A stretch of 64,000 nucleotides of DNA from an uncultured Hyphomicrobiales bacterium (lineage in GTDB: Bacteria > Bacteroidota > Ignavibacteria > Kapaibacteriales > UBA2268), in the NCBI GenBank assembly GCA_964524325.1, contig CAZGCT010000001.1, positions 172,164-236,163 on the forward strand, in the 5' to 3' direction. The position numbers were made by a program, and so were the translations under genes. A model generated the notes under the pieces. That model did no database searches. It was not told the origin of the DNA and was given only the letters and a program-made list of their open reading frames with translations. The number at the start of each line of letters is the position of its first letter. Position 1 is the stretch's first letter. Below, in pieces: positions 15,644 through 55,925 of this stretch.

Positions 15644-15647
15644 TTTT

Positions 15648-16678: not shown

Positions 16679-16691
16679 TAACAAAGATAAA

Positions 16692-32765: not shown

Positions 32766-33014
32766 CTCCAAATTCACATTTGCTTTAATTGTTTTTACTC
32801 GCATACACAAAATTAATGAATTTAAAGGAGAAAATTTGTCAATTTTAAAACTACAAAGCGGAATTTAAAAATTTGACAAAAAATTCATAAAAAAAATTAT
32901 TGCTCAATATTATTTATTTTTTAATTTTGTTTTTACATTTTAATTGTTACCTAACAAATTGATAGTTTTTGAAATTAGAAAAAAAGTATGTTTTTTAAAC
33001 TTTGAGGGATTTTA

Positions 33015-34376
33015 ATGACTGCAAAACCAAAAACTCGAAAAGCTTTGGGTACTCAACAACAAAAAAAGTTGGGACCGACACAAGTGATTATCTTTGTGGC
33101 TTTATTAGTATTTTTCTTTTTCGTCTGTTTCCGATATTTTATTCCTTGGGGAACCGCGCAGTTTGTTGTACCTTTGTTTAAACCAAGCGGTGACAAATTG
33201 GAAAAAATTGGTTTTGTAAAATTCCAAGACCTTGTTTGGGCATCTACCACTAAAGAAAAAGCCGAAGAAATTATAAAACATGGTTCGGTTGAAATCAGCA
33301 AGGATTTGATTAATAAGGAATTTATTTTTGATTTTACTTTTGAACCAAGAAACGAACGCGAGCACGGATATGTTAAAGAATCACTTCAATTCTTTGTGAA
33401 ATCCGAGGTAATAGGGGAAAATGCCATTATTTTGGACCCTGAGCTTGCCTTTTCAATTCTTGCATTGGACCTTGCTTTTCTTGTTACTATCTTTCTTACA
33501 ATGGTTTTTCCAACCAATTTTGGCTTTATGGCTTTGCTTTTCGACCGTCAAATAGATAATACTAAAACAAAGATTCGACTTCAAACTGGCTTTCCAGAAG
33601 AGGTTGTTGAACTTCTTGTTATGCCCGATGATATTTTGATTCAAAAAGATAGGGATGAAGTCGAAAAGGCATTTAGAATAGTGTGGGAAAGAACCATTGG
33701 CGAAGAAATGTCCTCTCCTCGTCAATCACTGCGTTTTGAAGATATTTTTGATGACACCACGGATGTAGTCAAGTTTAGAAATATCAATCTTTATAGTAGA
33801 ATAAAGGACTATTTCTCTGATTTCGTTTTGAAGGAAATTGAAGATACCAAAGACGGTTTGCTCTGGCGACGAAATCATTTCCTTGTTTTCAAAGGGTTGA
33901 GATTGTACATGGCACACCATTTTACCGAGAAATATTCCAACAATGTTACAGGTCTTGCCTATGGCGGTGCTGCATTTCTAATTGTTGCAGTTGGTATTCG
34001 AGGGTTGAAATTTATCCCCGCAACCAAACCCTCCTTTATTTTGCTTGCCATCTTTCTTGAATTTACCATGTTGGCTTTGCTGTCAATTACTTTGATTTAT
34101 ACAGAAGAAGAAGAACGAATGGACCGTATGTTGAAAAAAATGGAAGATGCAAACAAAAGCCAGTTGGAAGCTCTTCGCACCCAACAATACGATATCCATC
34201 AATTAACCACAGTCTTAATTGGACAATCTGCCGAAATTATCAAGTCCCGTGTTGAACGTGCTATTTCTGATTATCTTACAAGCGACGATCATGTCAAAAA
34301 GATGATAGCAGAAGAAATTAGCGAAAAAATTCTTATTGGGTTGAAAGAATCATTCTTAAGCGAAAAAGGAAAGTAA
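33015..34376 (+). CDS. hypothetical membrane protein with C-terminal coiled coil
   Basis: An N-terminal TM helix and internal hydrophobic helices are followed by a charged coiled-coil tail. Confidence 0.5.
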   Translation: MTAKPKTRKALGTQQQKKLGPTQVIIFVALLVFFFFVCFRYFIPWGTAQFVVPLFKPSGDKLEKIGFVKFQDLVWASTTKEKAEEIIKHGSVEISKDLINKEFIFDFTFEPRNEREHGYVKESLQFFVKSEVIGENAIILDPELAFSILALDLAFLVTIFLTMVFPTNFGFMALLFDRQIDNTKTKIRLQTGFPEEVVELLVMPDDILIQKDRDEVEKAFRIVWERTIGEEMSSPRQSLRFEDIFDDTTDVVKFRNINLYSRIKDYFSDFVLKEIEDTKDGLLWRRNHFLVFKGLRLYMAHHFTEKYSNNVTGLAYGGAAFLIVAVGIRGLKFIPATKPSFILLAIFLEFTMLALLSITLIYTEEEERMDRMLKKMEDANKSQLEALRTQQYDIHQLTTVLIGQSAEIIKSRVERAISDYLTSDDHVKKMIAEEISEKILIGLKESFLSEKGK

Positions 34377-34393
34377 AATTTTGAATTTTTTCT

Positions 34394-34426
34394 AAATGCC
34401 CACGTTTTCGTGGGCATTTTTTTTTT
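34394..34426 (+). terminator. intrinsic terminator AAATGCCCACG-TTTT-CGTGGGCATTT followed by T10
   Basis: A perfect 11-bp stem, a 4-nt loop and a long T-run lie immediately after the stop of the 33015-34376 gene. Confidence 0.8.
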
Positions 34427-34436
34427 GCCTAATTCC

Positions 34437-34784
34437 TTATTGAATGAATAATGATAAAATATCTTCAGGTTTAATATTGGCTTGTGCTTTAATGCCTTCT
34501 TCTTTGAATTTAGCCTTTTTTGTTTCTTCCAATTCTTTTAAAGCTTCCTCCAATGTTTGAATTTGCCTAAATCTACCTTGGCTAAGCGGATGATTATTGT
34601 CCAATTGGTTCTTATTCTCCAGATATTTTAGAGCAATATCGACAACACTTTTTTGCCAGTCGCTTAAATCCAAAATGTCCTTTTGCTCTTTGTATACAAT
34701 TGCAACAGACTCTTCTTTTCTAAATTGCTTAGATTTAATGTCTTCTACTTTGTTTAGCATGTTTTTGATTGAACGAATTTCCAT
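34437..34784 (-). CDS. hypothetical protein
   Basis: A 115-aa charged helical ORF. Confidence 0.4.
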   Translation of the reverse strand: MEIRSIKNMLNKVEDIKSKQFRKEESVAIVYKEQKDILDLSDWQKSVVDIALKYLENKNQLDNNHPLSQGRFRQIQTLEEALKELEETKKAKFKEEGIKAQANIKPEDILSLFIQ

Positions 34785-34917
34785 TTTTGCCCTCTTGTTT
34801 TTTCAAAATATTATTTGTATTTTGTTTTTGGTTTTTTTAATTTTTTTGAAAAATGAAATTCTTCAATTTTTATACCATAATTAAGAATTCAATTTGTCAA
34901 ATTGTTCGGGAGGGTTT

Positions 34918-35421
34918 ATGAAATTTTTATTACCAGTTCTTTTATTAGTCTTCTTGCTATCTTGTTCTACTTCAAATGACCAGTTATCGACGGAAGAAGA
35001 AGTTAGGGAAAAAGAGAAAGTTGTCGAAGTTTTGAAAGCCTACAATAAAGCCTATGAAAAGAAAAACTTCTCGGAAATGGTACGCTATCTTGCTAATGAT
35101 TTAACTTTTTTTGGTAGCGATTCAGGGGAAACCGTTAAATCTTTATCCGAATTTAAGGTAGCTATAGAAAAGCAGTGGGAAGATATGGATTCCTTGAAAT
35201 TTGGTAATATGCAAGATATTTACATTTTAATGGATTCAAGAGGAAGAATCGCCTCGGCAATTTATGGAATTCCTTTGAATATTTGGACTAACGGACAATA
35301 TGTTAACTTTTTCCTTCGTGTAGCAAGAACATTAAAGAAAGAAGGTGGAAACTGGGTGATTGCAAGCGGTATTACTGGAATTACTCGCCCATCGAAATCG
35401 GTAAAAGAATTGGTTGAATAA
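34918..35421 (+). CDS. lipoprotein with SnoaL/NTF2-like (DUF4440-type) fold
   Basis: The lipobox FLLSCS follows the signal peptide. The start is taken at the ATG preceded by a GGAGGG Shine-Dalgarno site. The rest is a KAYNKAYEKKNF-type NTF2-like region. Confidence 0.5.
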   Translation: MKFLLPVLLLVFLLSCSTSNDQLSTEEEVREKEKVVEVLKAYNKAYEKKNFSEMVRYLANDLTFFGSDSGETVKSLSEFKVAIEKQWEDMDSLKFGNMQDIYILMDSRGRIASAIYGIPLNIWTNGQYVNFFLRVARTLKKEGGNWVIASGITGITRPSKSVKELVE

Positions 35422-35596
35422 ATTACCTTGCTAAACTTCTTAAATTTTAAGCTATTTTACAAAAACTAAAGATTGAGGATTTAAGAGGTTTTCTTTTAAA
35501 TATCTCTAAATGTTGTACTTTTATTTTTTTAAACCAGTTTTCATTTAAGTAAAACTGGATTGATTATTAATATTTCTAGATTTGTTTTTGGGTATG

Positions 35597-36745
35597 CTAA
35601 TAAAAAAGGTAAAAGAAAACAAACCTTGTAGTTATTGAAGGAGCAAAACTTCTTTCTTTGGTTTTTTCATAAGTTTCGATTAAAAGCGAGGGAGTAAGAT
35701 AAATCTTTTCAATTGGTTTATAATTAAGGCAAAAAAGGAATAAATTCCTTTTGTCATTTTGGAAATCTCTAGAAATATTAGGATCAATTTGGTCGAACCT
35801 AAAAACAAAATTTACTTTTTTTGATAAATAAAATATCCCAAACAGGGAAATACCTAACATGTTTCTATTTAAATATTTCTTTTGAAGTGTATCGTAAAAC
35901 GAATTACGCACATAATTGTAAAAGTTTTCAACTCCAACTTTGAAAAGGTCTTTTTGGTGGAATGTAAAGAAAATTGAAACTAAGTCTTCATCCTTACTCA
36001 ATATTTGATTTGCTACAAATTTATCGGATATGGGTTTTTGATATTTATGGTAATAATTAATAAAAGCGTTGATGCTTTCGCTGGGTTTAAAAAAGAAATT
36101 CGAATACAAAGTTTTATGTCTATCTGTTTCGGGAGTATTGCCAGAACCATTTCCAAAAAGGAACCAGTAGTTAACAATTCCTTCTTTGTCTATCTTACCT
36201 TTTAAAGAAATTCCGAAATCTCTTGAGCTCGAAAAACCATATAAATCAATAATTGTTTTTTCAACATGTCGATTTTCCCATGAAAATTCCGAAATGTCGA
36301 ATGTTGGGGTTGGTTGTATTCCAATTGTCAAGTTCGAGCCTTGAAAAATATTTTTCCATTGAAGGTAGGCATCCTTTACAAAAACACCTATTTTTGAATT
36401 ACTTGTTAGGGTGAATTGGTCGGCTTCAAGCCTAAACCTGGATGAAAATTGATCAGAAATTTGGTAATCATATGTAAAGTAAATCCTTCTGAACTCGAAT
36501 CCGTTAAGGTCTTTAGCATCTTTATAATTTACGAATGGGAGTTGTGCGACGCTACTGTCTCGCATAATATTGTAGTAATAATCTCCAAACATATAACCCG
36601 AAAACCGACCTTTCTCAAGTATTTCTTGGGATTGTACTGAGTAAAATGAAAGAAAATTTACTATTAAAAGGATCTTCAAATTAAATAATCTGAATAGCTT
36701 GCCTTGCTTCATTCTAAATATTTTAAAAAACTCAAAATTAATCAA
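35597..36745 (-). CDS. outer-membrane beta-barrel protein (porin-like)
   Basis: A signal peptide and alternating aromatic beta-strand pattern are present. The C-terminal residue is aromatic (Y). Confidence 0.5.
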   Translation of the reverse strand: MINFEFFKIFRMKQGKLFRLFNLKILLIVNFLSFYSVQSQEILEKGRFSGYMFGDYYYNIMRDSSVAQLPFVNYKDAKDLNGFEFRRIYFTYDYQISDQFSSRFRLEADQFTLTSNSKIGVFVKDAYLQWKNIFQGSNLTIGIQPTPTFDISEFSWENRHVEKTIIDLYGFSSSRDFGISLKGKIDKEGIVNYWFLFGNGSGNTPETDRHKTLYSNFFFKPSESINAFINYYHKYQKPISDKFVANQILSKDEDLVSIFFTFHQKDLFKVGVENFYNYVRNSFYDTLQKKYLNRNMLGISLFGIFYLSKKVNFVFRFDQIDPNISRDFQNDKRNLFLFCLNYKPIEKIYLTPSLLIETYEKTKERSFAPSITTRFVFFYLFY

Positions 36746-37022
36746 AAGTTAACAATTCTACTTATTATAATAGTGATTGATAGGGTATACACTTTTTGTG
36801 ATACTGTAAACTTTTCAACAATTTAAACAATTTGATTATTAACAGTTTGGGAAAATAGGATCGAATTTTCATCTTAGTGACAAAGTAACTCCTAAGTTTT
36901 AAAATTTCGATAAATAGTTTTAAAATAATTTGGGGTGCAAATAATGATTTAAGTAACGAAAAGGAATGTTTTTATTTAATAAAGAAATAATGATTTTTAG
37001 AATTGATTTTCTTCTATTTCAA

Positions 37023-38192
37023 TTATTTGCATTTCCTAAGATTACGTGCTACAAAATTCTCAATTTTACTTACCAAATCTATAGTAAGCTTATCCGCAAT
37101 GAAATAACCTTCTGGGGTCAGTTTTATCAAATTATTATTTATTATGGCTTTGCCCATAGACTCCCAAGCCTCAAATATTTGACCGCAGATTTGGAACAAA
37201 TCAATTCCAAATTCTTGTTTGAACTCGAGTAGGGGAATCCCCTCAGATCTCAAGCCAAGCATAATTTTCTCAAGAATTCTTTTATTTGTATCAATGTGTT
37301 CGAAATTTTCTATTGGTAAGCGATTTGACTTAAGTAGGTTAAAATAATTGTTAAGGTTTCTTACATTCCAACTTCTTTTGTGGTTAAAGAAACTATGAGC
37401 GGATGGTCCAAAACCAAAATAATCTCCATATCTCCAGTAATTTAAATTGTGAAGTGATTTAAATCCAGATTTAGCAAAATTGGATACTTCATATTGAATG
37501 AAATTGTGTTCGCTAAGTGTTGAAGTTATAAACTTATATATTTCAAAATCTTGCTCTTCTGTTTTGGGGCAAATATTGCCTTTTAGGAGTTCATTATACA
37601 ATGGGGTTTTTTCTTCATAAATTAATGAATATGCAGAAATATGTTTGATGTCGTGTTTCAATAGTTCTTCTAAGGTTTTACTGATCGAAGCAATGGTCTG
37701 ATTAGGTATCGAGAAAATGATATCCACACTTACTTTTTCAAAAAAGTCTAATGCCATAGTGATGGCATCCATTGCTTCTTTTGCTGTGTGAATTCTATCT
37801 AAAAATGTTAGTTCTTCGGGGACTAATGATTGGACTCCTATGCTGATTCGGTTTATCCCGAGTGATTTGTAATCTGCCAATTTGTTGGTGAAGTTTGTTC
37901 CAGGATTGCATTCCACCGTAAATTCACTAATTTCATCAACATCGAAAAAATTTGAAATTGTGGAAATTATTTTATCAATTTGCTCTGGTTCCAAAAGGGA
38001 AGGAGTGCCTCCTCCAAAATAAAGAGTATGGACTTTTACTCTTCTCCCCAATTCATGATTAAAGTAAAGTTCAATTTCTCTTTGTAACCAAAATACAAAT
38101 TCTTCAATCTTGCGTTTATTTGTAATGGAGTAAAAGTCACAATATGAGCATTTTTTTTCGCAAAATGGGATGTGAAGGTAGATTCCTATCAT
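37023..38192 (-). CDS. hemW: radical SAM heme chaperone HemW (HemN-like, oxygen-independent coproporphyrinogen oxidase family)
   Basis: The radical-SAM motif in IYLHIPFCEKKCSYCDF and a HemN C-terminal domain are present. Confidence 0.8.
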   Translation of the reverse strand: MIGIYLHIPFCEKKCSYCDFYSITNKRKIEEFVFWLQREIELYFNHELGRRVKVHTLYFGGGTPSLLEPEQIDKIISTISNFFDVDEISEFTVECNPGTNFTNKLADYKSLGINRISIGVQSLVPEELTFLDRIHTAKEAMDAITMALDFFEKVSVDIIFSIPNQTIASISKTLEELLKHDIKHISAYSLIYEEKTPLYNELLKGNICPKTEEQDFEIYKFITSTLSEHNFIQYEVSNFAKSGFKSLHNLNYWRYGDYFGFGPSAHSFFNHKRSWNVRNLNNYFNLLKSNRLPIENFEHIDTNKRILEKIMLGLRSEGIPLLEFKQEFGIDLFQICGQIFEAWESMGKAIINNNLIKLTPEGYFIADKLTIDLVSKIENFVARNLRKCK

Positions 38193-38193
38193 T

Positions 38194-39405
38194 TTACGAA
38201 AGTTTGTATTGATTAATCTTTCGGTACAAGGTTCGCTCGCTTATTCCAAGGGCTTTTGCAGTTCTACGGCGATTTCCTTTAAATTTTCTTAGGGTATATG
38301 AAATAATTTCTTTCTCGATATTGGTTAAATTCAAATTATCTGGTAAAATATTTGGGAAACCATCATTATCGACAATATGATATGTTCCCGGCCTTAGTTC
38401 TGTAATATTCGAATTTACCGAATCCATCTTACTATTCAATTCGTTTAAAGCTTCTTTTACCAGGTCCACATCCTTTTTAATTTCAAGTAAAGTTCTAAAA
38501 ATGATTTCTAAGCCTAGTTGGGTTTCTTTTCCGGAAGGAACATAAAGTAAAGATGTTTCCTTAGGTTGTTCAATTCTTACATGGGGTGGTAGTGCTGGTG
38601 GAAGGTACCTTTTTAAAACCTCAAGGGTTATATACCCAGTTTTTTCAAGTTTTAATATAGTTTCTATGAGATTTTTTAATTCCCTAATATTTCCAGGCCA
38701 TTGCAATCCACGAAGGATATTCAAAGCTTCCAACGATACCCCTTGAAAAGAGATCCCAAGTTGCGAACAAGTTTTTTGGGCAAAAAAATCGACCAGAATT
38801 GGAATATCCTCTGGACGTTCACGTAATGGAGGAAGAATAATATGCAAATTTTTTAGTCTGTAAAACAAGTCTTGTCTGAAAGTCCCTTTGTATATTTCCT
38901 CTTCAAGCTTTTTATTTGTAGCAGCAATCACTCGTACTTCAACCTTCCTGACTTCAGTTGAACCTAGTCGATTGAATTCCCCTGATTCAAGTACACGAAG
39001 TAATTTAACCTGCGTTCCGACGGGCATTTCTCCAATTTCGTCCAAGAAAATTGTTCCGCGATTTGCTACTTCGAAATATCCTTTTCTTTGTTCGTAAGCT
39101 CCGGTAAAGGCACCCTTTTCGTGTCCAAAAAGTTCGGACTCTAGCAATGTTTCAGGTATTGCGCCACAATTAACACTTATGAAAGGAAATTTTCTTCTTT
39201 TGCTAAGTTGATGAATGGCGTTGGCGACTACTTCTTTTCCAGTTCCAGTTTCACCCGTGATTAAAACATTAAGGTCCGTGGGGGCAACTTTAAGAATGGT
39301 ACGGAAGATGTCAAGAATTTTTTCAGATACACCAACAAGTCCATATTTGTTTTCTAGTAATTCAAGAGTGGCTTTATTAATTATTATTTCTTCATTCATT
39401 GGCAT
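38194..39405 (-). CDS. sigma-54-dependent transcriptional activator lacking an N-terminal sensor domain (PspF-like)
   Basis: The AAA+ domain starts at about residue 20 (GETGTGKE). The GAFTGA motif is present. A C-terminal Fis-type HTH reads RTAKALGISERTLYRKI. Confidence 0.85.
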   Translation of the reverse strand: MPMNEEIIINKATLELLENKYGLVGVSEKILDIFRTILKVAPTDLNVLITGETGTGKEVVANAIHQLSKRRKFPFISVNCGAIPETLLESELFGHEKGAFTGAYEQRKGYFEVANRGTIFLDEIGEMPVGTQVKLLRVLESGEFNRLGSTEVRKVEVRVIAATNKKLEEEIYKGTFRQDLFYRLKNLHIILPPLRERPEDIPILVDFFAQKTCSQLGISFQGVSLEALNILRGLQWPGNIRELKNLIETILKLEKTGYITLEVLKRYLPPALPPHVRIEQPKETSLLYVPSGKETQLGLEIIFRTLLEIKKDVDLVKEALNELNSKMDSVNSNITELRPGTYHIVDNDGFPNILPDNLNLTNIEKEIISYTLRKFKGNRRRTAKALGISERTLYRKINQYKLS

Positions 39406-40054
39406 TCTTTCTTAACTTTGTCCATTCATCCCAACCACCGGGATAAATAAAAACATTTTTGTAACCGAGGTGAATTAAATCGTACGAAACTTTGTGGCTT
39501 GCGTCGCAAGAACCTCCTTCGCAATAGACAATAATTACTTTTTGTGGGTCTATTGGCAAAGTTGCTATCTTTTGGAAATACAAGTTTAGGTCCTGCTCGT
39601 AGGCAAAGATATTTATAGCTTTGCCAATATGGGCTTTATTGTACTCATCTGGTGAACGTGCATCAATTAGTATGAGATTTGGAGACTCAAGGTATTTAAT
39701 TAATTGATTGTAGGTAACAATGGGAATTTCATCTGAACGTTTTTGAGGATTGATTTTATCAACTTGCTTTTGTTCTATTTGGGTTGCTTTCTTTGCTTTC
39801 GTTGTATCCTTTAAAGTAAAAGTAGCTGTGTCTAATTTTTTTATATCTTCTTTGCTTGCAGTTTCTTTTGGGGGTACATTCGAAATTGTATCAGAAAGAA
39901 GTTTTTCTAATATTGTGTCCGAAACTATTGCTGGTTTCTTAAATAAAATAATTCCAGACGGGTTTAAATAGTTGTAAATTACAGCAACGAAAGAAGTTAA
40001 GCCTAAAATAAAAAGAGCTTCTCTGGAAATTTGTTTCCAATCTATTTTGCGCAT
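39392..40054 (-). CDS. membrane-anchored rhodanese-domain protein
   Basis: An N-terminal TM helix is followed by a rhodanese fold (LIDARSPDEY). The active-site loop is VYCEGGSCD. The gene overlaps the activator gene by 14 nt. Confidence 0.7.
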   Translation of the reverse strand: MRKIDWKQISREALFILGLTSFVAVIYNYLNPSGIILFKKPAIVSDTILEKLLSDTISNVPPKETASKEDIKKLDTATFTLKDTTKAKKATQIEQKQVDKINPQKRSDEIPIVTYNQLIKYLESPNLILIDARSPDEYNKAHIGKAINIFAYEQDLNLYFQKIATLPIDPQKVIIVYCEGGSCDASHKVSYDLIHLGYKNVFIYPGGWDEWTKLRKNANE

Positions 40055-40055
40055 A

Positions 40056-40442
40056 TTAAAATCCTCTTTCTTTTTTAATTAATTCAAAAGCAAAGTTAAT
40101 TTCTTGAATTTTATGCGTTGCAAAATTGCGAATTTCTTGCCCAAGATTTTGGACAAAGTCCGGGTGATACTCTTTAACTTTTCTTTTATAAGCCATTTTA
40201 ATTTCATCTATTGTAGAATTTCGGTCTATACCAAGAATTTGATAAGCTTCGTTAAGGGAAATGTTATTTATGTTCTTTTCAAAGTTCCGATAAAATGAAC
40301 TTGTTTTCTTCCATTCATTCTCAATTTCTTGTTTTAAAGCATCATCTTCTTCAAGAGGAAGTTCATAATGTCGATATTCAAATTCTTTATCGGTTAAATT
40401 CGACTTGATAATCTTCCAAATTCTTCCAAAAATTTGCGACAT
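40056..40442 (-). CDS. J-domain protein
   Basis: A C-terminal J domain with an HPD motif (KEYHPDFVQNL) is present. Confidence 0.6.
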   Translation of the reverse strand: MSQIFGRIWKIIKSNLTDKEFEYRHYELPLEEDDALKQEIENEWKKTSSFYRNFEKNINNISLNEAYQILGIDRNSTIDEIKMAYKRKVKEYHPDFVQNLGQEIRNFATHKIQEINFAFELIKKERGF

Positions 40443-40534
40443 TTCAAATTTTTTAAAAAAAATTAAACGAACAAGAAATAGATTTATGACAAGGAATATA
40501 AAGGTTAAGACAAATTGACATATTGAATAAATTA

Positions 40535-41389
40535 CTAGTAAGATTCTGATTCGTTGGGAAAGTTTTGGTTTCTAACATCTTCAGCATACTTTTTACAAGC
40601 TTCTAAAATTGTTTCGAACAAACTTGCATATCTACGTACAAACCGAGGATTAAAATCTATAGTTAAGCCAACAAGGTCGGTATACACAAGGATTTGCCCA
40701 TCGCAGTGCGGCCCTGCGCCAATACCTATTGTGGGTATTTTAATTGCTTGAGAAATTTTTTTGGACAGTTCTGCGGGTATTTTTTCAAGGACTACGGCAA
40801 AAACACCAGCTTGTTCTAAGTTTACAGCGTCGCGGAAAATTGCTTCCGCTTCTTGTGGATCTTTGCCTCTTGCCCTATAAGAACCAAATTTGTGGATACT
40901 TTGTGGCGTAAGACCAACGTGACCCATCACCGGAATACCACTTTCTGTCATTCTTCTAATTGCTTGTAAAGTAATTTCTGTAGCACCTTCCAATTTAACT
41001 CCTCCACAACCTGTCTCTTTCATAATTCTTCCTGCATTTGTAAATGCTTCGTCCGCAGATACTTGGTAGCTCATAAACGGCATGTCTGCAATAATTAAGG
41101 GTCTTTTTGCTCCTCTTACAACTGCTTTTGTATGGTAGATAATTTCATCCAATGTAACTGGTATAGTTGTTTCTAACCCTTGGACAACATTACCAAGCGA
41201 ATCTCCAACTAAAATTACATCTACACCACTTTCATCTAATATTCTTCCTATTAAAGCATCATAAGCGGTTAGACAAACTATCTTCTGCCCAGAATTTTTC
41301 ATTTCTTGAAGTCTAAAAGTTGTGACTTTGCGTGGGTCCACGCTTGTGCTTCCAATATAATCCATTTTTCCCTTTTCGATTAAAAGCAA
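40535..41389 (-). CDS. panB: 3-methyl-2-oxobutanoate hydroxymethyltransferase
   Basis: The motifs KIVCLTAYDALIGR, LVGDSLGNVVQG and GIGAGP are present. Confidence 0.85.
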   Translation of the reverse strand: MLLIEKGKMDYIGSTSVDPRKVTTFRLQEMKNSGQKIVCLTAYDALIGRILDESGVDVILVGDSLGNVVQGLETTIPVTLDEIIYHTKAVVRGAKRPLIIADMPFMSYQVSADEAFTNAGRIMKETGCGGVKLEGATEITLQAIRRMTESGIPVMGHVGLTPQSIHKFGSYRARGKDPQEAEAIFRDAVNLEQAGVFAVVLEKIPAELSKKISQAIKIPTIGIGAGPHCDGQILVYTDLVGLTIDFNPRFVRRYASLFETILEACKKYAEDVRNQNFPNESESY

Positions 41390-41678
41390 AATTAAAAAAT
41401 ATGTAACTGGTTAAATAAAATTTTTTTCCGTAATGTATTATTGGATTAAGAAATTTGCTTTGATTTATGTCATTACGGCAGAACCGAGCTACTTGATTTT
41501 ATTCATTTTTAATTCGTAGAAATAATGAACACCGAAACTAGATTTTTTTTAATTTTACTGTTTGGTAATATTTAAATATTAGATTGATACGATTATAAAA
41601 AAGGTACATTAATTTTATATTTATTATAAAACAATAGGGTGCAAATTTTAATAAAAAATATTGAAGAGGTAAATTGGT

Positions 41679-41691
41679 GCTGCTTAGCAGC
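41679..41691. promoter_or_regulatory. 13-bp perfect palindrome GCTGCTTAGCAGC in the divergent panB / octaheme-operon intergenic region
   Basis: An exact palindrome about 250 nt upstream of the octaheme cytochrome start. It is a candidate dimeric regulator binding site. Confidence 0.3.
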
Positions 41692-41942
41692 TGATAATTA
41701 TTGTAGCTTAGTTTTTCAAGTTTTAGAATTTTACTGTTTGTATTGCTATGAGAACCCTTCAAAGTAGTAACAATTTAATTTTTTGCACTAATTTTCTAAG
41801 CAAAACTACAAAAGTTTATCAGCCATGATACTTTGTTCTTGGTGTTATTATTTTATGAAAATAGTGGATTCACTTCAGAAATTGCCTCTTAATTTCCTTT
41901 TAAAATTCGATAATTTCTTATTTATGTTAAATAAAAGAAAGC

Positions 41943-43544
41943 TTGAAAGATATGAGATGGATTGTAATTTCTCTTGCCATTTTAAGCGGCGTCGCTGTTG
42001 TTGTCCTCAACCTTATTAGTCCTAAAGAAATATTACCTACAAAGTTAATGCAATTGAGGGAAAAGTATTCCTCTAAAAAGTTCGAAGCTGGGTACAAACG
42101 TGTCGACCACTCAAAATTTGCTATTCTCCAACAAAATTTCGAAACACCACAAGAGGTTACCAAAGCCTGCATTTCGTGCCACAATAATACTGCAAAAGAT
42201 ATTATGAATGGTAACCATTGGAATTGGGAAAGAGTTGATTACATTAAAGGCAAAGGAATTGTGTATCTTGGGAAAAGAAATGCAATCAATAATTATTGCT
42301 TGAGTGTTGTAAATAGCGAAAAGCTTTGTGCAAAATGCCACATTGGATTCGGAATTGACCATACTGGTCGTGGTTTTACCGATTCAACGAATATTGATTG
42401 CCTAATATGCCATGATAATACTGGATCATATGCAAAAGCTTCAGGGGAAGCTGGTGCACCGTCTCCAAATGTCAATTTCAATTTTGTTGCTCAAAATGTA
42501 GGCAAACCACAGAATGTAAATTGTGGTTCATGTCATTTCTTTGGTGGGGGTGGGAACAACGTAAAGCACGGCGACTTAGAAGTGTCATTGTTGGAGGCTA
42601 CAAATGAAGTTGATGTACATATGGGTATCGATGGATTTAATTTGCAATGTATTGATTGCCATACTACTCATAGGCATAATATATCGGGGAAATTGTATTC
42701 ATTGTCTTCAATGAATACAAATAGAGTTGAATGTGAACAATGCCATACCGCTACACCTCACACAAAAGGGATTTTAAACGAGCATACATTGAAAGTAGCT
42801 TGCCAGACTTGTCACATACCTAAATATGCAACAATGAAACCAACTAAATTATCTTGGGATTGGAGCGAAGCTGGAAAACTTGTAGATGGTAAACCGATAA
42901 AACTTAAAGATTCCCTTGGTAATGAAATTTATACATCCCAGAAAGGTAGGTTTACTTGGGGCAACAATGTACGACCCGATTACATTTGGTTCAACGGAAC
43001 TAGTAGCCATTACCTTGCTGGAGACAAGATTCAAGATACTTCGAAACCATTGGTGCTCAATCAATTATTTGGTACATTCGACGACCCAAGTTCAAAAATT
43101 TATCCAGTGAAAATTCATTATGGCAAGCAGCCATTCGACCCGATTAACAAAATACTAATTCAGCCAAAACTTTATGGTGAGAAGTCCGGCGAAGGTGCCT
43201 TTTGGGTTGATTTCGATTGGAAAACTTCTTCAAAAATTGGTATGCAAACTCTCGATTTACCTTTCAGTGGTGAAATTTCTTTCATTCCAACTATTATGTA
43301 TTGGCCCTTAAATCATTTGGTTGTTAAAAAAGAAAAATCTGTGCAGTGTATAGAATGCCATACCAAAAACAGCTCTCGCCTTGCTGGACTTCAAGGTCTT
43401 TACTTGCCCGGGAGGGATAATAGCGATTTGGTTGACTACGGTGGTTTAATATTAATAATTTTAGTGATTCTTTTGGTTGTGATCCACTCTTCATTTAGGA
43501 TTTATTTTTATTTTAAAAATAAAAAAGAGGTTCAAAATGGGTAG
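41943..43544 (+). CDS. membrane-anchored octaheme c-type cytochrome (OTR/HAO-like superfamily)
   Basis: There are eight CxxCH motifs: CISCH, CAKCH, CLICH, CGSCH, CIDCH, CEQCH, CQTCH and CIECH. A hydrophobic segment sits at each end. No CxxCK motif is present. Confidence 0.8.
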   Translation: MKDMRWIVISLAILSGVAVVVLNLISPKEILPTKLMQLREKYSSKKFEAGYKRVDHSKFAILQQNFETPQEVTKACISCHNNTAKDIMNGNHWNWERVDYIKGKGIVYLGKRNAINNYCLSVVNSEKLCAKCHIGFGIDHTGRGFTDSTNIDCLICHDNTGSYAKASGEAGAPSPNVNFNFVAQNVGKPQNVNCGSCHFFGGGGNNVKHGDLEVSLLEATNEVDVHMGIDGFNLQCIDCHTTHRHNISGKLYSLSSMNTNRVECEQCHTATPHTKGILNEHTLKVACQTCHIPKYATMKPTKLSWDWSEAGKLVDGKPIKLKDSLGNEIYTSQKGRFTWGNNVRPDYIWFNGTSSHYLAGDKIQDTSKPLVLNQLFGTFDDPSSKIYPVKIHYGKQPFDPINKILIQPKLYGEKSGEGAFWVDFDWKTSSKIGMQTLDLPFSGEISFIPTIMYWPLNHLVVKKEKSVQCIECHTKNSSRLAGLQGLYLPGRDNSDLVDYGGLILIILVILLVVIHSSFRIYFYFKNKKEVQNG

Positions 43545-44211
43545 GAAAGTTTATATCTATTCTGCATACGAGAGATTTTGGCATTGGACTCAAGCAATTT
43601 TGATTTTCTTTTTAGCCTTCACTGGCTTCGAGGTACATGGTGTTTATATTTTCTTTGGGTACGAAAATGCTGTAATTTACCATAGAATTGCTGCCTATCT
43701 TTACATCATATTGGTTATTTTCACTATTTTTTGGCATTTTGCTACAGGACTATGGAAACAGTATATTCCTACGCGAAAATTCATTAAGGAACAAATTGAG
43801 TTTTATATTACCGGTATTTTTCGTAATGCTCCTCATCCTATTAAAAAGACTGTTTTAAGCAAACTTAATCCATTACAAAAGCTTACTTACTTTGCATTAA
43901 AAGTTTTGGTAATTCCAATAGTGGGTACATCTGGTTTATTCTATCTTTTTTATCGGTACCAAACCGACTTAGGGGTACAAGCAATTAATATTGCTTCATT
44001 GAAATACATTGCAATAATTCACACCGCCGGTGCAATTTTGCTGGTTGCTTTTATTATTGTGCATATTTATTTAACTACAACTGGAACTACTATTTTTTCA
44101 AATCTAAATGCTATGTTGACTGGGTACGAAGAAATAGAAACAAAGGAAGAATCGGATAAAAATTTCGTCCAGAAATCAGAGTTGCCGGTTCAAAATTTAG
44201 AAGAAAATTAA
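43537..44211 (+). CDS. cytochrome b561/HydC/FdnI-family membrane b-type cytochrome subunit
   Basis: RFWHWTQAILIFFLAFTGFEVHG and four TM helices carrying His ligands are present. The gene overlaps the cytochrome c gene by 8 nt. Confidence 0.7.
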   Translation: MGRKVYIYSAYERFWHWTQAILIFFLAFTGFEVHGVYIFFGYENAVIYHRIAAYLYIILVIFTIFWHFATGLWKQYIPTRKFIKEQIEFYITGIFRNAPHPIKKTVLSKLNPLQKLTYFALKVLVIPIVGTSGLFYLFYRYQTDLGVQAINIASLKYIAIIHTAGAILLVAFIIVHIYLTTTGTTIFSNLNAMLTGYEEIETKEESDKNFVQKSELPVQNLEEN

Positions 44212-44232
44212 TTTAAGTCATAAATTTGGAGA

Positions 44233-44754
44233 GTGAATATGGAAACACAAAAGTATATGAATCCTTACTTGGCGGGCTTGTTGTTAGGTTTGTTGTTACT
44301 TTTTACTTTTTTTATCACTGGTCGTGGTTTGGGTGCAAGTGGTGCATTCAAAAGCCTTACAGTTGCTACAGTCCAAAGCATTGCCCCTGGACATTCAAAT
44401 AATTCTAAATTCTACAAGGAATATTCCGAAGAGCATTCTGGAAATCCCTTGATGAACTGGCTTGTCTTTGAAATTTCGGGTGTCATTATTGGGGCTTTTC
44501 TTTCTGGACTTGCATCCAATAGATTGAAACTTCAATTGGAAAAAGGACCGAGGTTGTCTTCGAACACAAGAATAATCGCAGCATTTCTTGGTGGGGTACT
44601 TTGGGGAGTTGGTTCACAACTTGGTCGAGGTTGCACAAGCGGTGCAGCTTTGAGCGGCCTTGCAATTATGTCCACTGGGGGTATCCTTACCATGATATCA
44701 ATTTTCGCTGGGGCCTATTTGTTTGCATTTTTCTTTAGAAAGTTTTGGATTTAA
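44233..44754 (+). CDS. YeeE/YedE-family sulfur-compound transporter, half-size subunit A
   Basis: The protein is 173 aa with 4 TM helices. The conserved loop GRGCTSGAALSGLA is present. Confidence 0.7.
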   Translation: MNMETQKYMNPYLAGLLLGLLLLFTFFITGRGLGASGAFKSLTVATVQSIAPGHSNNSKFYKEYSEEHSGNPLMNWLVFEISGVIIGAFLSGLASNRLKLQLEKGPRLSSNTRIIAAFLGGVLWGVGSQLGRGCTSGAALSGLAIMSTGGILTMISIFAGAYLFAFFFRKFWI

Positions 44755-44766
44755 TTGGGAGGATTT

Positions 44767-45996
44767 ATGGGACCACTTGTGCCAGATGTAATTAGTCAAG
44801 GGTTAAATTTTGTTATTGCATTTTTTATTGGAATTTTCTTTGGTGCGATATTGGAACAGGCAGGTTTTTCTTCTTCGCGAAAACTTGTTGGTTTGTTCTA
44901 CGGTTATGATTTTACGGTTTTAAGAGTATTCTTTACTGCTGGTGCCGTTGCAATGGCTGGAATTTTTCTTTTCCAAACATTTGGAATCATCGATATTACT
45001 GCCTTTTATATAAATCCAACTTACTTCTGGTCTGCAATAGTTGGTGGTTTAATTATGGGACTGGGATTTGTTGTTGGTGGATATTGCCCAGGAACAAGTG
45101 TTTGTGCTGCTTCCATAGGTAAGCTCGACGCAATGGTTTTCGTTTTTGGCATTATTGTTGGCGTTTTTATTTTTGCCGAAGGGTACAGTATCTTTGAACC
45201 ATTATATAAAAGTTCGTTTCTGGGTTATCCAAGAATTTTCCAAACCTTAAATATTTCTCAGCAGTTTTTTGCTTTTCTTTTGGTTATAATTGCTTTATCT
45301 GCTTTTTATTTTACAAATATTATTGAAAACAAAGTAAATAGTAAAAAGCTAAGTGCCATCAAAACTACACCTTATTTTGCAATAGTGTTAGTGATTGGAG
45401 TTGTTATTGCTTTTTCTTCCTTTACTTTTTACGATAAAAAGGAGATGATATTAAGTTTAACGGAAAATCCAGAATATGTTGTCTCTGCAACTGGTATTTC
45501 TTGCTCCGATACTAATCCAAATCCAAATTCAATTTGCCCTGACGAATTTGCTCTTATCTTAATTAGAATCCTTGAGTTTAAAAACATTAAAATTTATGAT
45601 TTCAGACCCACAGAAGATAGACAAAAACTACCATTTCCAAAATCTATACCCTCAACAATTGATGATTTGTTTTCTAAAGAATTCAATAGACTACTTCGGG
45701 TGAGGGGCACCGAAAATATTTTTATTGCTAATGATGAATTTACAGAAAGAAAGATGGTCTTTATTGCTAAAAGTTTGGGCTACAAAAAAGTTAAGTTTTT
45801 GAAAGGTGGGGTGAACTACTTTGTCGATGAAATTTTGAATTACAAAGAAAACCCCGATCCTAGAACCCAACAAGAAATTAACCGGAACAAATTTAGGCTT
45901 TATGCTAAACAAGTATTACCGGAAATCTTTGCAAAGTCTAAGACAAATGAAGTTTCCCAAACAAAGAAGAAAAAACCTACTATGGGAGGGTGTTAG
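44767..45996 (+). CDS. YeeE/YedE-family transporter half-size subunit B fused to a rhodanese-like domain lacking the active-site Cys
   Basis: The N-terminal TM region carries GGYCPGTSVCAAS. The C-terminus has a rhodanese-like fold (KIYDFRPTEDRQ...FLKGGVNYF) with no Cys at the catalytic loop position. The start is taken at the ATG preceded by GGGAGG. The ORF track begins at an upstream TTG at 44755. Confidence 0.65.
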   Translation: MGPLVPDVISQGLNFVIAFFIGIFFGAILEQAGFSSSRKLVGLFYGYDFTVLRVFFTAGAVAMAGIFLFQTFGIIDITAFYINPTYFWSAIVGGLIMGLGFVVGGYCPGTSVCAASIGKLDAMVFVFGIIVGVFIFAEGYSIFEPLYKSSFLGYPRIFQTLNISQQFFAFLLVIIALSAFYFTNIIENKVNSKKLSAIKTTPYFAIVLVIGVVIAFSSFTFYDKKEMILSLTENPEYVVSATGISCSDTNPNPNSICPDEFALILIRILEFKNIKIYDFRPTEDRQKLPFPKSIPSTIDDLFSKEFNRLLRVRGTENIFIANDEFTERKMVFIAKSLGYKKVKFLKGGVNYFVDEILNYKENPDPRTQQEINRNKFRLYAKQVLPEIFAKSKTNEVSQTKKKKPTMGGC

Positions 45997-46080
45997 TATC
46001 TCTTTTTTGAATTTTTAATTAGGATTAGATTTTGTTTAGTTGCATGGGTTATTTGTTTAGATTAACTTTTTAAAACTAAT

Positions 46081-47376
46081 TTACTTTATCATGTTTCCAT
46101 AATGATCGAACATGTATTTCACAACGGCTTCGGCTTCGTTTGGTTTTAGACCTTGGTTTGGCATAGGCGGGTAATTTGGGTCTACTTTAACAGGGTTTAG
46201 AATGTACCTTACCATATCTTCTTGGCGATCCTCATATTTTTTTAATACTTCTTTGTGAGGAGGGCCAACCAATTTGGTATCGAATTGATGACAAGCAACA
46301 CATTTTGCTTTGTAAATCTCTTCCCCATTAACTTCTTTGACTGTACTGCGACCAGCACTTGCTAAAAGCTTCTCATGATATGCAATATGATCTTTTGAAA
46401 TTTTGAACTCTTGTATTTTGTTCGAAATTGCGAGGGAGGTTGCATCCGAACCAAAGAACAATAGGAAAGAGAATATTGCAGAGAAAAAGGCATTTTTGGC
46501 AAAAGTAATGCTTTTATTTTTTAATGAAAAATAACTAAATAGTAAGCAAAGTAAAAAAACAAGCAAAGAAGCTACAAGTAAAATGTAATTTTGTAGGGTT
46601 ACAAGACTTTTGGGTAAATTGACATAAATGACAAGAGAAATAATTGGAAGAATATTGCCCCAGATGATAACATTTGAAAGAGCTTTTTTAACCACACCGT
46701 TTTCTTCAGGAAAAAATTCGCCTATTTCGGAAACTTTATCCACTGTAAATGTTTTGAAAATGTAGGCTAAGGAGGAAAGGACAAAAGCAATTCCAATGAA
46801 TTGGATAATTCTGAAAATAATATTCAAATCCAAAAAATCTGCAATGTTGAAGCCAGATAAAACGAATGAATTTTGAATTGCAATTAATGAAATACCATTA
46901 GTTAAGTATATAGTAAAAAAGATTGCAATTATTGAAAGTGTTTGAAGTAATAAAATAGTCGGATTAATGTTTATTAAACTATGATTCTTTTCAAAAAAAA
47001 ATAGTATGGTCTTTAGGAAAACTACAAATAAGATGAAAAGTAGAGTGGAAGAAAAAAGTACTACAAAAAAGTCATTGGGTGCCTTTTGCATAAATTGAAG
47101 TAAGGAATAATATATCGAAAGCAAAGGAACAAACCCAAGCCCGATTAACGCTACATAGCCTCTTGCGATATACTCGATAAAGTTCCTTGCAATAGTTAAA
47201 TAGTATTCGTTTTTTGTTTTATTGGTTTTAACATAGAAATATAGGGAATAAATTACACCACCAAACAAAAAAGCAAAATAAAGGTTGAAGGTTGAAAAAC
47301 CTAAATAGAAAAATATCTCCAAAAGTTTTGAAACCTGTACTGAATGTGGAATTGCAAAAACGTTCAACGCTTCCAT
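46081..47376 (-). CDS. polytopic membrane protein with C-terminal class-I cytochrome c domain
   Basis: About 12 TM helices are followed by KAKCVACHQFD ... PPMP, a CxxCH motif plus a Met-ligand region. It is the last gene of the cox/ctaB run. Confidence 0.55.
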   Translation of the reverse strand: MEALNVFAIPHSVQVSKLLEIFFYLGFSTFNLYFAFLFGGVIYSLYFYVKTNKTKNEYYLTIARNFIEYIARGYVALIGLGFVPLLSIYYSLLQFMQKAPNDFFVVLFSSTLLFILFVVFLKTILFFFEKNHSLININPTILLLQTLSIIAIFFTIYLTNGISLIAIQNSFVLSGFNIADFLDLNIIFRIIQFIGIAFVLSSLAYIFKTFTVDKVSEIGEFFPEENGVVKKALSNVIIWGNILPIISLVIYVNLPKSLVTLQNYILLVASLLVFLLCLLFSYFSLKNKSITFAKNAFFSAIFSFLLFFGSDATSLAISNKIQEFKISKDHIAYHEKLLASAGRSTVKEVNGEEIYKAKCVACHQFDTKLVGPPHKEVLKKYEDRQEDMVRYILNPVKVDPNYPPMPNQGLKPNEAEAVVKYMFDHYGNMIK

Positions 47377-47386
47377 TTATTCTCTC

Positions 47387-48256
47387 CTAAAATTTGAGTA
47401 TTTTCTGAACTGAAATGACAAGTGAGAAAATTAAAACAAAGATGTTCAAATTTATAAATGCTATTTTATAAAAGTTTTGTGGTTGGATAACTTTAACCAT
47501 ACGGTAAATTCTTCCTAAAAATAAAACACCTAGCAAAAAAACAACGATAAACGAATAAAGATTAAAACTTTCGATAAAAGCTAATATTATCAATGCAATT
47601 ATCACAAGTGCAAAAATCCAAAAAAAAGATATTCTTGCAATTTGTAAGGAAGAAAAAATATCTGTGAGCACTGGAAAGCCAGCATTTCGATACTCTTTCT
47701 CATAAACAATTAAAAGTAACCAAAAATGTGGAATTTGCCATACAAAAAAGAAAAGGGAAATTGAAAAGATTTGAGGATGCTCAATTGAACCGCCCGCAAA
47801 TGTCCAACCTATCAAAGGAGGAATTGCTCCAATCACAGCTCCAGGGATTGCTGCAAAAGGGGTTATTCTCTTCAAAGGTGTATAAATTACATTATAAAAA
47901 ATTAAGGCAAGAAGCCCAAAAAAGAAAGGGTGTGACTTTTCACTTGAGAGAAAAAGTACAGCTAAGCCTATTGCAATTAGTGCTCCAGATATAATAGTTC
48001 CAGATGCTGGAGAAATTACTCCTTGGGGGATTGGACGAGACATTGTTCTTGGCATTCGACTGTCCAATTGCCATTCTTGCACTTGATTGAGTGCACCGGA
48101 GCCTCCAGCCAGCAAAAAAACACCAAGCCAAAGGAAAAACAAATCGAAATTAATAGAATTGTTTGCAAGTATATAACCAAGAATTGCTGATATCGATACA
48201 AATACGACAATTCGAAATTTAATCAATATTAGAAAATTCTTTAAGGTAAATTTCAT
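47387..48256 (-). CDS. ctaB: protoheme IX farnesyltransferase (heme O synthase)
   Basis: A UbiA-family fold carries the motif NQVQEWQLDSRMPRTMSRPIP. Confidence 0.8.
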   Translation of the reverse strand: MKFTLKNFLILIKFRIVVFVSISAILGYILANNSINFDLFFLWLGVFLLAGGSGALNQVQEWQLDSRMPRTMSRPIPQGVISPASGTIISGALIAIGLAVLFLSSEKSHPFFFGLLALIFYNVIYTPLKRITPFAAIPGAVIGAIPPLIGWTFAGGSIEHPQIFSISLFFFVWQIPHFWLLLIVYEKEYRNAGFPVLTDIFSSLQIARISFFWIFALVIIALIILAFIESFNLYSFIVVFLLGVLFLGRIYRMVKVIQPQNFYKIAFINLNIFVLIFSLVISVQKILKF

Positions 48257-49224
48257 TGTTTATTTTTTGCAAAGTTGATGAACAACAAATCAACAATGTA
48301 CTCTAATTCATCTTCTTTTAAGTTGTTTAGTTGTCTTGGCATTTTAATTTTTTCATAACCACTAACAATATGTAAGTCGGGGTTGATTATTGATTCCCGA
48401 ATGTAGTTCTTGTCTATAGCAACAGAAGTGTCTTTCCCATTGAAGATGACTTTTGCAAAACCCCGAGATAATTCAGAAAACGATGGACCTATGCTTTTTC
48501 TGTTGTCAATACTATGACATTGGACACAACCTTTTGCAAATAAGATTGCCTGGCTACCAGACAAGTAATCTTTATAGCCACCAGTATGAGATGCTACATA
48601 TTTTCGAAGATAATTATCGTCGACTTTACCCTCTAGCCATTGCGAAAATTCATGCTCCGGTACGACATAGACTTTTGTGTACATTAATGAATGATTCAAA
48701 CCGCAATATTCAGCACATGCTATGTCGAATGAACCAATTTCTTTCGGATGTACAACCATATAGTTTTCTCTACCAGGAATAGCGTCCTCTTTAATTCTAA
48801 AAGCAGGTATGTAAAAAGAATGGTTTACGTCTTGCGATACAATGTTGAACTTAACTGGCCTTCCAACCGGTATAAACAAAGTGTCTGTTACTTTGCCATT
48901 ATCGTAAAAAAAATTCCAAGCCCACATTTTTGCTTCGACCTTAACGTTCAGTGCGTTGGGTGGAACAATTCGCGATTCCTTGAAAACTCCATAACTGTAG
49001 AAAAACATTGTTAAGACAAGTATTACAGGAACAACAATCCAAATAATTTCAACAACCTTATTCCCCTCAATTTGCGAGGCGACTGGATTTCTCTTCCGAT
49101 TGTATTTGATTACAAAATATATCATAGCAAAAGTAACAATCAAAAGTAACGCAACTGCTATTCCTATTATATACAACATCACATAATCGACTGATTTAGC
49201 ATATTCTGTTGCCCATTGAAACAT
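48253..49224 (-). CDS. coxB: cytochrome c oxidase subunit II with fused cytochrome c domain (caa3-type)
   Basis: Two N-terminal TM helices are followed by the CuA motif CAEYCGLNHSLM. A C-terminal CVQCH heme site is present. Confidence 0.85.
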   Translation of the reverse strand: MFQWATEYAKSVDYVMLYIIGIAVALLLIVTFAMIYFVIKYNRKRNPVASQIEGNKVVEIIWIVVPVILVLTMFFYSYGVFKESRIVPPNALNVKVEAKMWAWNFFYDNGKVTDTLFIPVGRPVKFNIVSQDVNHSFYIPAFRIKEDAIPGRENYMVVHPKEIGSFDIACAEYCGLNHSLMYTKVYVVPEHEFSQWLEGKVDDNYLRKYVASHTGGYKDYLSGSQAILFAKGCVQCHSIDNRKSIGPSFSELSRGFAKVIFNGKDTSVAIDKNYIRESIINPDLHIVSGYEKIKMPRQLNNLKEDELEYIVDLLFINFAKNKQ

Positions 49225-49233
49225 TTCAACCTC

Positions 49234-49527
49234 CTACCTAAAGAAAATATCAGTTGCCGTAAGAATAAAAATTGATGCAAGCGTTACCAGTGCAACCAAA
49301 AGAAAGAACTTGAAAATTGCATCGTCGAATTTAATATGCATAAAATAGTTTATAACAAGAGTTGACTTGACAGCTGCAATAAATAAAGCTATAAACAAAG
49401 CAATCCGACCAAAATCTACACCAGCAATGGTTACTGTAAGGACAGTAAGTGAAACAAGGCTTAACCAAACAAGTACATAAGTTCCATAGGGTATTAAATG
49501 TGAGTTGTGCTCTTTTTCCATTGTCAC
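49234..49527 (-). CDS. coxD: cytochrome c oxidase small subunit IV (CoxD-like)
   Basis: A 97-aa protein with 3 TM helices, positioned between coxC and coxB. Confidence 0.5.
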   Translation of the reverse strand: MTMEKEHNSHLIPYGTYVLVWLSLVSLTVLTVTIAGVDFGRIALFIALFIAAVKSTLVINYFMHIKFDDAIFKFFLLVALVTLASIFILTATDIFFR

Positions 49528-49530
49528 CTC

Positions 49531-52595: not shown

Positions 52596-52606
52596 AACTC
52601 TCTATT

Positions 52607-53512: not shown

Positions 53513-53588
53513 TTTATGCTGCCCAAATTTTAATTTAGTTTCTTCTAATAAAGCAAATACGATATTTTTAAAAAATATTGTTAAGATT

Positions 53589-55918: not shown

Positions 55919-55925
55919 TTTGACC

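Follow-up and report, generated by a model that had tools for sequence, protein, structure and literature searches.

On the minus strand of the 64-kb stretch of contig CAZGCT010000001.1 analysed here (the window, from an uncultured bacterium of the Kapaibacteriales), a sensor-less sigma-54 activator, or enhancer-binding protein (EBP), is encoded directly behind a membrane-anchored rhodanese and a small J-domain protein. These genes form a clade-specific partner set around an uncharacterised sensor-less EBP of the FCB superphylum, and literature searches found no description of it, nor any paper on the rhodanese-EBP pair or on the identity of the Bacteroidota heat-shock EBP. The rhodanese and the EBP are likely to be functionally linked, and the gene order across relatives suggests that the rhodanese and the J-protein that usually accompanies it are probably the control partners of the EBP. 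Sensor-less sigma-54 activators are rare, with PspF and HrpR/HrpS as the textbook cases for the trans-control of AAA+ activators, and the EBP described here belongs to a large uncharacterised sensor-less family that extends across Bacteroidota, Ignavibacteria and related phyla. Published maps place chaperone and envelope-quality-control genes of Bacteroidota under sigma-54, and no paper naming the responsible activator was found in literature searches. The cassette offers concrete candidates here, namely a J-protein, an anchored CX4C rhodanese and a DNA box.

Among the open reading frames (ORFs) called on the minus strand, panB (40535-41389) is followed after 92 nt by the gene of a 128-aa J-domain protein (40056-40442), after a further 1 nt by that of a 220-aa single-pass membrane rhodanese (39392-40054), and then, with an overlap, by the EBP gene (38194-39405), which encodes 403 aa, or 401 aa from its likely start at 39399. 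The overlap measures 14 nt if the EBP begins at its first ATG; the second methionine (MNEE..., 401 aa) is the start in relatives and in the output of gene callers, and with it the overlap shrinks to 8 nt, ATGAATGA. The run closes with hemW (37023-38192), which begins 1 nt past the EBP stop codon and belongs to the radical-SAM heme chaperone family (TIGR00539, 287.1 bits against a cutoff of 205.4). The J-protein, the rhodanese and the EBP, joined by hemW in this sub-lineage only, are best read as a self-contained operon with its own promoter. A preliminary description of the window had already recognised the one-helix rhodanese with a CEGGSCD loop overlapping the EBP gene, as well as hemW directly downstream, and both are borne out here. 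It had also taken the rhodanese for the only candidate partner of the EBP, and so overlooked the conserved J-domain gene 1 nt further upstream.

The EBP was characterised by Pfam, NCBIfam, alignment, an AlphaFold2 (AF2) model and a sequence search of the PDB. Pfam places the Sigma54_activat domain (PF00158) at residues 24-189 (E 2e-72), AAA_lid_14 at residues 195-269 and a Fis-type helix-turn-helix (HTH) domain (HTH_8, PF02954) at residues 360-400 (E 2e-13), and finds nothing N-terminal of residue 24, in agreement with the earlier statement that the protein has no receiver, GAF or PAS domain. In the alignment, the Walker A (GETGTGKE) and Walker B (DEIGE) motifs are invariant, as is the sigma-54-contact loop EKGAFTGA (residues 96-103) across 21 sequences. 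The AF2 model consists of the AAA+ domain (24-256), a disordered segment (258-302) that holds a conserved PPALPP motif, and a single long helix (299-336) before the HTH. The protein is a sigma-54 activator with intact catalytic and sigma-54-contact motifs and no input domain. The rpoN gene is absent from the 64-kb window.

An architecture of AAA+ plus HTH only is shared with the PspF-PspA/PspBC and HrpR/HrpS-HrpV systems, in which sensor-less EBPs are controlled in trans by partners encoded alongside; here too, candidate control proteins are co-encoded and one of them is membrane-bound. In addition, the E. coli psp operon ends in a rhodanese, PspE. The label "PspF-like" given to the EBP before holds for this architecture and fails for orthology: the PspF equivalog models are not reached (TIGR02974, 286.7 bits against a cutoff of 443.55; PRK11608, 239.9 against 529), and in the PDB sequence search NtrC, FleQ and NifA match the AAA+ core no less closely than PspF does, with ZraR similarly close. 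The cassette further differs from the PspF system in its partners, a J-domain protein and an anchored CX4C rhodanese in place of PspA/IM30 (no match among the genes of 33000-46000), and in the extra 90-aa linker with a long helix that the window EBP carries before its HTH.

The rhodanese and the J-protein beside the activator

The cassette was compared in 13 independent loci of a Kapabacteria-like clade, made up of the window contig (L001) and 12 loci found through EBP or rhodanese homologues; a metagenome scan with a single rhodanese sequence returned five loci. The rhodanese gene lies directly upstream of the EBP gene in all 13, at EBP identities of 54-82% and rhodanese identities of 31-57%. 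In close relatives the two genes meet with anything between an 11-nt overlap and a 3-nt gap; distant ones show a looser junction. A J-domain gene directly precedes the rhodanese gene in 11 of the 13 loci. A HemW-like radical-SAM gene follows the EBP in seven, a linkage limited to the closest sub-lineage, and a LOG-family gene stands before the J-domain or rhodanese gene in four. The outer flanks of the cassette differ completely among the loci, and LOG, panB and hemW come and go around it. An adjacency of rhodanese and EBP that is kept in every locus while the outer flanks change is the pattern expected of functional partners. The role of EBP partner, first proposed for the rhodanese in the preliminary description, is thus supported by gene order, and also by the CX4C motif of the rhodanese (C178, C183), which is kept in all 13 loci.

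Another possible explanation, if a somewhat unlikely one, is that these are housekeeping genes co-transcribed without regulatory contact, with the EBP constitutive, set by its abundance or controlled from elsewhere. FCB genomes keep many mixed-function operons, and the same EBP is embedded elsewhere in MiaB-EBP-LptE loci, which often share the same 14-nt overlap. The adjacency in 13 of 13 loci, down to 54% EBP identity and with other neighbours changing, is nevertheless stronger than usual operon drift. While LOG, panB and hemW join and leave the cassette as co-transcribed bystanders would, and no fusion protein (the J-protein search gave six close matches) or other direct sign of interaction was seen, the known sensor-less EBPs PspF and HrpR/HrpS are run by partners from neighbouring genes.

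For the rhodanese, Pfam places PF00581 at residues 116-213 (E 4e-22), and the AF2 model comprises a helix (6-30), a disordered stretch (55-107) and a confident rhodanese domain (112-220). In the active-site loop, VYCEGGSCDAS, C178 occupies the column of the catalytic-position cysteine of PDB rhodaneses, and no sequence departs from it in sets of 22 and of 13. The transmembrane (TM) helix and a juxtamembrane motif, YNxxNPxGIxLxxKPxVVSD, are conserved as well as the rhodanese domain itself. Among 27 homologues, the tail before the helix carries two to three K/R with one to two acidic residues, and the 15 residues after it also carry two to three K/R. NCBIfam equivalogs are far below cutoff (PspE, 24 against 102; GlpE, 24.5 against 102). 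E. coli YibN, PspE and GlpE each have a single rhodanese domain like the window protein, and YibN also has an N-terminal anchor, whereas the window rhodanese family is set apart by its CX4C loop and its long disordered linker.

In E. coli, YibN carries its rhodanese domain in the cytosol behind the N-terminal anchor and binds YidC through its helix (PMC11997395). That the window rhodanese is a YibN-like factor of membrane-protein biogenesis and not a sulfur sensor, either as a member of the stress regulon or as a reporter of insertion stress to the EBP, seems quite improbable. The two proteins have the same architecture and align with a pairwise E of 1e-8 at 22% identity, yet this is similarity at the generic level of rhodanese domains. 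As regards topology, YibN is an example of this architecture facing the cytosol, whereas Sud and YnjE, which are periplasmic, resemble the window protein in sequence just as closely. YibN is also without the first, catalytic-position cysteine of a CX4C pair that is invariant in the window family, and its topology is clear, unlike that of the window rhodanese, for which the flanking charges point to neither side. The strong conservation of the TM helix and juxtamembrane motif, and the presence of SecG and LptE in the Bacteroidota EBP context, are what a role in membrane-protein biogenesis could explain.

The J-protein carries a J-domain (PF00226, E 3e-13) with an HPD tripeptide that is invariant in the J-protein alignment, and a J-domain with HPD classes it as a J-domain-only (type III) co-chaperone. 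Its N-terminus is amphipathic and conserved (MGQIFxRIKxIAKS), and it has no TM helix. The protein is not DjlA, since it reaches 60.4 bits against a cutoff of 162 and has no hydrophobic N-terminal helix, and it also falls below the cutoff of the DnaJ model.

The sensor-less activator family of the FCB superphylum

A protein search with the EBP gave at least 8000 matches, nearly all of about 400 aa with the same domains, and a genome scan located 80 loci in Bacteroidia, Flavobacteriia, Chitinophagia, Ignavibacteria, Balneolales, KSB1, Marinimicrobia and Gemmatimonadota. The usual context in the scanned loci is MiaB-EBP-LptE-x-SecG-groES-groEL, with the LptE, MiaB and SecG neighbours confirmed by Pfam, and a groES/groEL-sized gene pair lies within 6 kb of the EBP in 33 of the 80. 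A rhodanese or a small J-protein stands beside the EBP in none of these 80 loci, and LptE is adjacent to the EBP in none of the 13 clade loci; the window EBP has the rhodanese, not MiaB, upstream and hemW downstream. The missing sensor is therefore a trait of the whole FCB family, whose members mostly have no rhodanese neighbour, and by itself does not point to the rhodanese, as had been argued at first.

In a neighbour-joining tree, the EBPs track taxonomy, and the rhodanese-linked sequences are monophyletic and form one clade among taxon clades. The window EBP fits the FCB sensor-less group in its length of about 400 aa, its lack of an N-terminal domain, its PPALPP/long-helix linker and its taxonomy-congruent phylogeny. 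The LptE-linked part of the family, with THC0290_0733 of Flavobacterium psychrophilum as its example, has the same length, domain layout and PPALPP/long-helix linker, and a near-identical HTH. The LptE-linked FCB EBPs share 38-48% identity with the window EBP, fall into the same taxonomy-congruent tree and have a TGTCA-N3-TGTC box nearby; the difference lies in the neighbours, as the window EBP has the J-protein and rhodanese upstream and hemW downstream, and no LptE, MiaB or groESL. The simplest reading of these sequences is that the window EBP is an orthologue of the LptE-linked EBP whose neighbourhood changed. Literature searches found no experimental function for either version.

Proteostasis genes also occur near the EBP in several loci: L084 and L097 have grpE-dnaJ at a distance of 4-5 kb upstream, L083 has htpG in its vicinity, and in L086 hrcA is two genes away. 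In a Bacteroidia metagenome-assembled genome (L010, 31-4260), a tightly packed run of grpE, dnaJ, EBP, a MORN repeat protein and an M48 peptidase replaces MiaB-EBP-LptE. The Gemmatimonadota homologues (L005, L017, L023, L038-L041) are longer, at 505-607 aa, with about 120 extra N-terminal residues that have no Pfam match and represent either an unrecognised input domain or over-extension of the ORF in GC-rich DNA.

The cassette promoter and the proposed control of the activator

Phylogenetic footprinting defines a promoter/operator region of the cassette at 40467..40520 on the minus strand, between panB and the J-gene. It is composed of a box of the form TGTCA-N3-TGTC (TGTCAATTTGTC, 40520-40509), the element TGTCATAA about 20 nt after the box (40491-40484), and TCGT (40470-40467) at a fixed 16 nt after TGTCA, and the footprint is common, with identical spacing, to the window and to L095, L096, L082, L083 and L097. 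The complete lack of a GG dinucleotide excludes the region as a sigma-54 promoter. A reading of TGTCATAA as a degenerate -24 element was rejected, as the -12 region is not conserved while the fixed-distance TCGT is. Written as TG[TA]CA-N3-TGTC, the box has a single occurrence in the window, at 40520, and across 225 kb of clade DNA its only occurrences are those at the cassette promoters of five loci and one inside a gene.

The same box marks the sigma-54-type groES promoters beside the orthologous EBP gene in Bacteroidota. TGTCA/TGACA pentamers number 70 in 4950 nt upstream of groES, where 9-15 are expected, and 11 in 660 nt upstream of the J operon against 0.84 expected; for the 12-nt box TG[TA]CA-N3-TG[TA]C, the enrichment upstream of groES is 43-fold, with 23 copies in 7.3 kb compared with 69 in 936 kb. 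Given the almost invariant HTH of the family, the box is most likely the DNA site of these EBPs, through which the EBP would autoregulate its own operon. PspF autoregulates at its own promoter, and the window EBP, like PspF, probably binds its own promoter too.

Most groES upstream regions in the EBP loci carry TGGCAY-N5-yTG with a weak -12 C. Mapped transcription starts in F. psychrophilum place sigma-54-type -24/-12 promoters at groESL, dnaK, grpE-dnaJ, htpG, lon, clpB and skp, and assign the EBP-LptE operon to a separate promoter class that is not of sigma-54 type, with the responsible activator left open (PMC9723704). A survey with position-specific scoring matrices reported chaperone enrichment of sigma-54 promoters across Bacteroidota (PMC12316311). 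In the Bacteroidota groES promoters (L008-L081, about 30-80 nt upstream of the gene), the cytosine of the -12 "GC" is not conserved, and standard TGGCAC-N5-TTGC scans consequently miss most of them. Flavobacteriaceae have a TTGTCAG element about 13 nt upstream of the TGG of the groES promoter.

The fixed-distance CGT of the cassette promoter resembles the -10 elements of extracytoplasmic function (ECF) type. A comparable motif, AAC-N16-CGTC, precedes the distant LOG-J-rhodanese-EBP operons (upstream of LOG in L085, L086, L093 and L094) and is also present at the grpE promoter of L097 (about 2950-2975), while the htpG promoter of L083 holds TTCGTTTA; these htpG and grpE promoters share a TTCGT(C/T)T element with the cassette promoter. 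An ECF sigma gene lies directly upstream of the J-gene in L084 (4302-4916) and L097 (8263-8871). The ECF-like reading of the CGT fits the AAC-N16-CGTC motifs, the htpG element and the ECF genes alike.

How, then, might the activator be controlled? Our preferred reading, which we hold tentatively and with somewhat more doubt than confidence, is that of a stress or proteostasis activator under trans-control and autoregulation, which would receive its input from the J-protein, acting via DnaK, and from the thiol-reactive rhodanese. Without an input domain of its own, the EBP would depend on the two co-encoded proteins, acting in trans, for its ATPase and oligomer state. Delivery of the EBP to DnaK by the J-protein would create a chaperone-titration loop, and the membrane-anchored rhodanese would add a thiol, persulfide/sulfane-sulfur or membrane-state input through its CX4C loop. 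The EBP would bind the TGTCA-N3-TGTC box and repress or tune its own operon, and its sigma-54 targets would lie outside the window, in a stress, proteostasis or envelope regulon and not in the octaheme/YeeE operon near panB. The control of sigma-32 (RpoH) by DnaK/DnaJ at the membrane is a conceptual parallel only, in which the activator is held by Hsp70 recruited through a J-domain and is freed when chaperones are busy. In the present case the regulated protein would be a sigma-54 activator and not a sigma factor, and hrcA is also present in the window genome. If confirmed, such a system would link Hsp70 and thiol chemistry to sigma-54 activation.

A broader version, in which the FCB sensor-less EBPs would be master activators of a sigma-54 proteostasis/envelope-stress regulon through the box, and the clade EBP would be membrane-gated by J-protein/DnaK and the CX4C rhodanese, is speculative, and we think it unlikely. 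If it were true, the family would be the counterpart of sigma-32 in a superphylum that, to our knowledge, has no RpoH, and folding load and thiol/sulfane-sulfur state would be joint inputs of an EBP, a control logic new for this class of proteins; we know of no EBP for which joint control by folding load and thiols has been described.

Several observations weigh against the tentative reading of a trans-controlled proteostasis activator. Gene order is what links the EBP to the J-protein and the rhodanese. The orientation of the rhodanese is ambiguous from its flanking charges, and a periplasmic domain would leave only the helix and about 12 residues facing the cytoplasm. The box could belong to another regulator, and some Bacteroidota loci have it as a hairpin with a T-run behind it, possibly the secG terminator. 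The clade EBP may also be a paralogue of the LptE-linked EBP. Two position weight matrices (PWMs) were scanned, the canonical TGGCAC-N5-TTGCW in the window and the clade loci, and one built from 26 Bacteroidota groES promoters. The best matches of the canonical PWM lie inside genes and are no better than those in shuffled sequence, and the groES-derived PWM has no intergenic match in the window above shuffles; both scans agree with the earlier failure to find a GG-N10-GC element by eye. A role of the EBP in driving the chaperone genes of the clade was rejected at the two available promoters, htpG (L083) and grpE (L097), which are without -24/-12 elements. Finally, hrcA lies in the window (27149-28282, minus strand), 10 kb from the EBP, and HrcA or an ECF-type sigma factor, instead of sigma-54, may control the chaperone genes of the clade.

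Sigma-54-like sites and sulfur genes of the window

The preliminary description had proposed a rhodanese cysteine that detects persulfide or thiosulfate and thereby controls the EBP, which would then drive a local regulon of an octaheme tetrathionate-reductase-like/YeeE operon and hemW. We regard this as highly improbable. The conserved gene pair with its two invariant cysteines is compatible with it, and so is the abundance of sulfur genes in the window, where octaheme TIGR04315 is accompanied by YeeE-type transporters, dsrC, sat and a DsrK-like gene. There is also a precedent in FisR, a sulfide-sensing sigma-54 activator that senses sulfide/polysulfide through cysteines in its own N-terminal domain and sits beside its targets sqr/pdo. 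The proposal for the window resembles FisR in coupling sulfur chemistry to sigma-54 activation, and departs from it in placing the cysteines on a second, membrane-bound protein that has no linked sulfur target. That most members of the EBP family have no rhodanese neighbour speaks further against the proposal.

The operon (41943-45996, plus strand) encodes an octaheme cytochrome (TIGR04315, 558 bits; start at 41943), a cytochrome b561 and two YeeE/YedE-type proteins. It is found on the window contig only and in none of the loci of the relatives, and in the syntenic L082, L095 and L096 a 430-aa cytochrome c gene directly adjoins panB. This adjacency indicates an insertion, and the octaheme operon looks like a recent one between 41390 and 46080. 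Its divergent neighbour is panB, and not the cassette. The 553 nt upstream of it hold no TGG[CT]A[CT] on either strand and a single TGACA. More generally, a sigma-54 promoter was sought before the octaheme operon, hemW and the J-gene and was found at none of them, the region upstream of the J-gene being without GG. As for hemW, it is co-transcribed with the EBP and is not a separate target, and the linkage is kept in 7 of the 13 loci and lost in 6. The octaheme/YeeE operon and hemW are thus not supported as the regulon of the EBP, and the local annotation is corrected to an apparent recent insertion. The C-terminal half (about 200 aa) of the second YeeE protein (413 aa) has no family match.

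A further point against the local regulon is that conservation singles out just one sigma-54-like -24/-12 candidate in the window, and this one stands before an unrelated gene. It is TGGTATAAAAATTGAA (34862..34877, minus strand), located 78 nt upstream of a gene (34437-34784, minus strand) for a 115-aa highly charged protein of no assigned family (best Pfam E 1e-3), which is preceded by TGGTATAAA-N2-TTG. L082 and L096 keep the site, as TGGTATAAATTTTG(C/T), ahead of their orthologues of this gene, with flanks that have diverged, and an identical 14-mer occurs in L088 before an unrelated methyltransferase/glycosyltransferase ORF. About 450 kb of strand contain four such sites where about 0.1 would be expected, each of them in an intergenic region and in the correct orientation, and the sequence (TGGTAT-N5-TTG) matches the Bacteroidota groES promoter consensus at 11 of 14 positions. 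The site at 34877 is a candidate sigma-54 promoter by these comparisons, with an extended -10 element (TGnTATAAA) as the alternative.

Other genes of the window were recorded beside these. The sulfur genes at 14030-19305 (minus strand) comprise a DsrK/HdrD-like Fe-S/CCG protein (14030-15643), a NarI/DsrM-like membrane protein (15648-16598), dsrC (16692-17009) and ATP sulfurylase (sat, 18118-19305), and bshC is at 20169-21788. Rfam and tRNA scans of the window gave no matches. At 46081-61080 (minus strand), a respiratory run encodes cytochrome c, heme O synthase, an aa3-type oxidase (COX1-4) and SCO1, followed by Alternative Complex III with ActD, an NrfD-like subunit, a 1035-aa molybdopterin/Fe-S subunit and a multiheme c7-type cytochrome. 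A plug-domain protein of the type IX secretion system (T9SS) at 191-1549 fits an origin from the FCB group.

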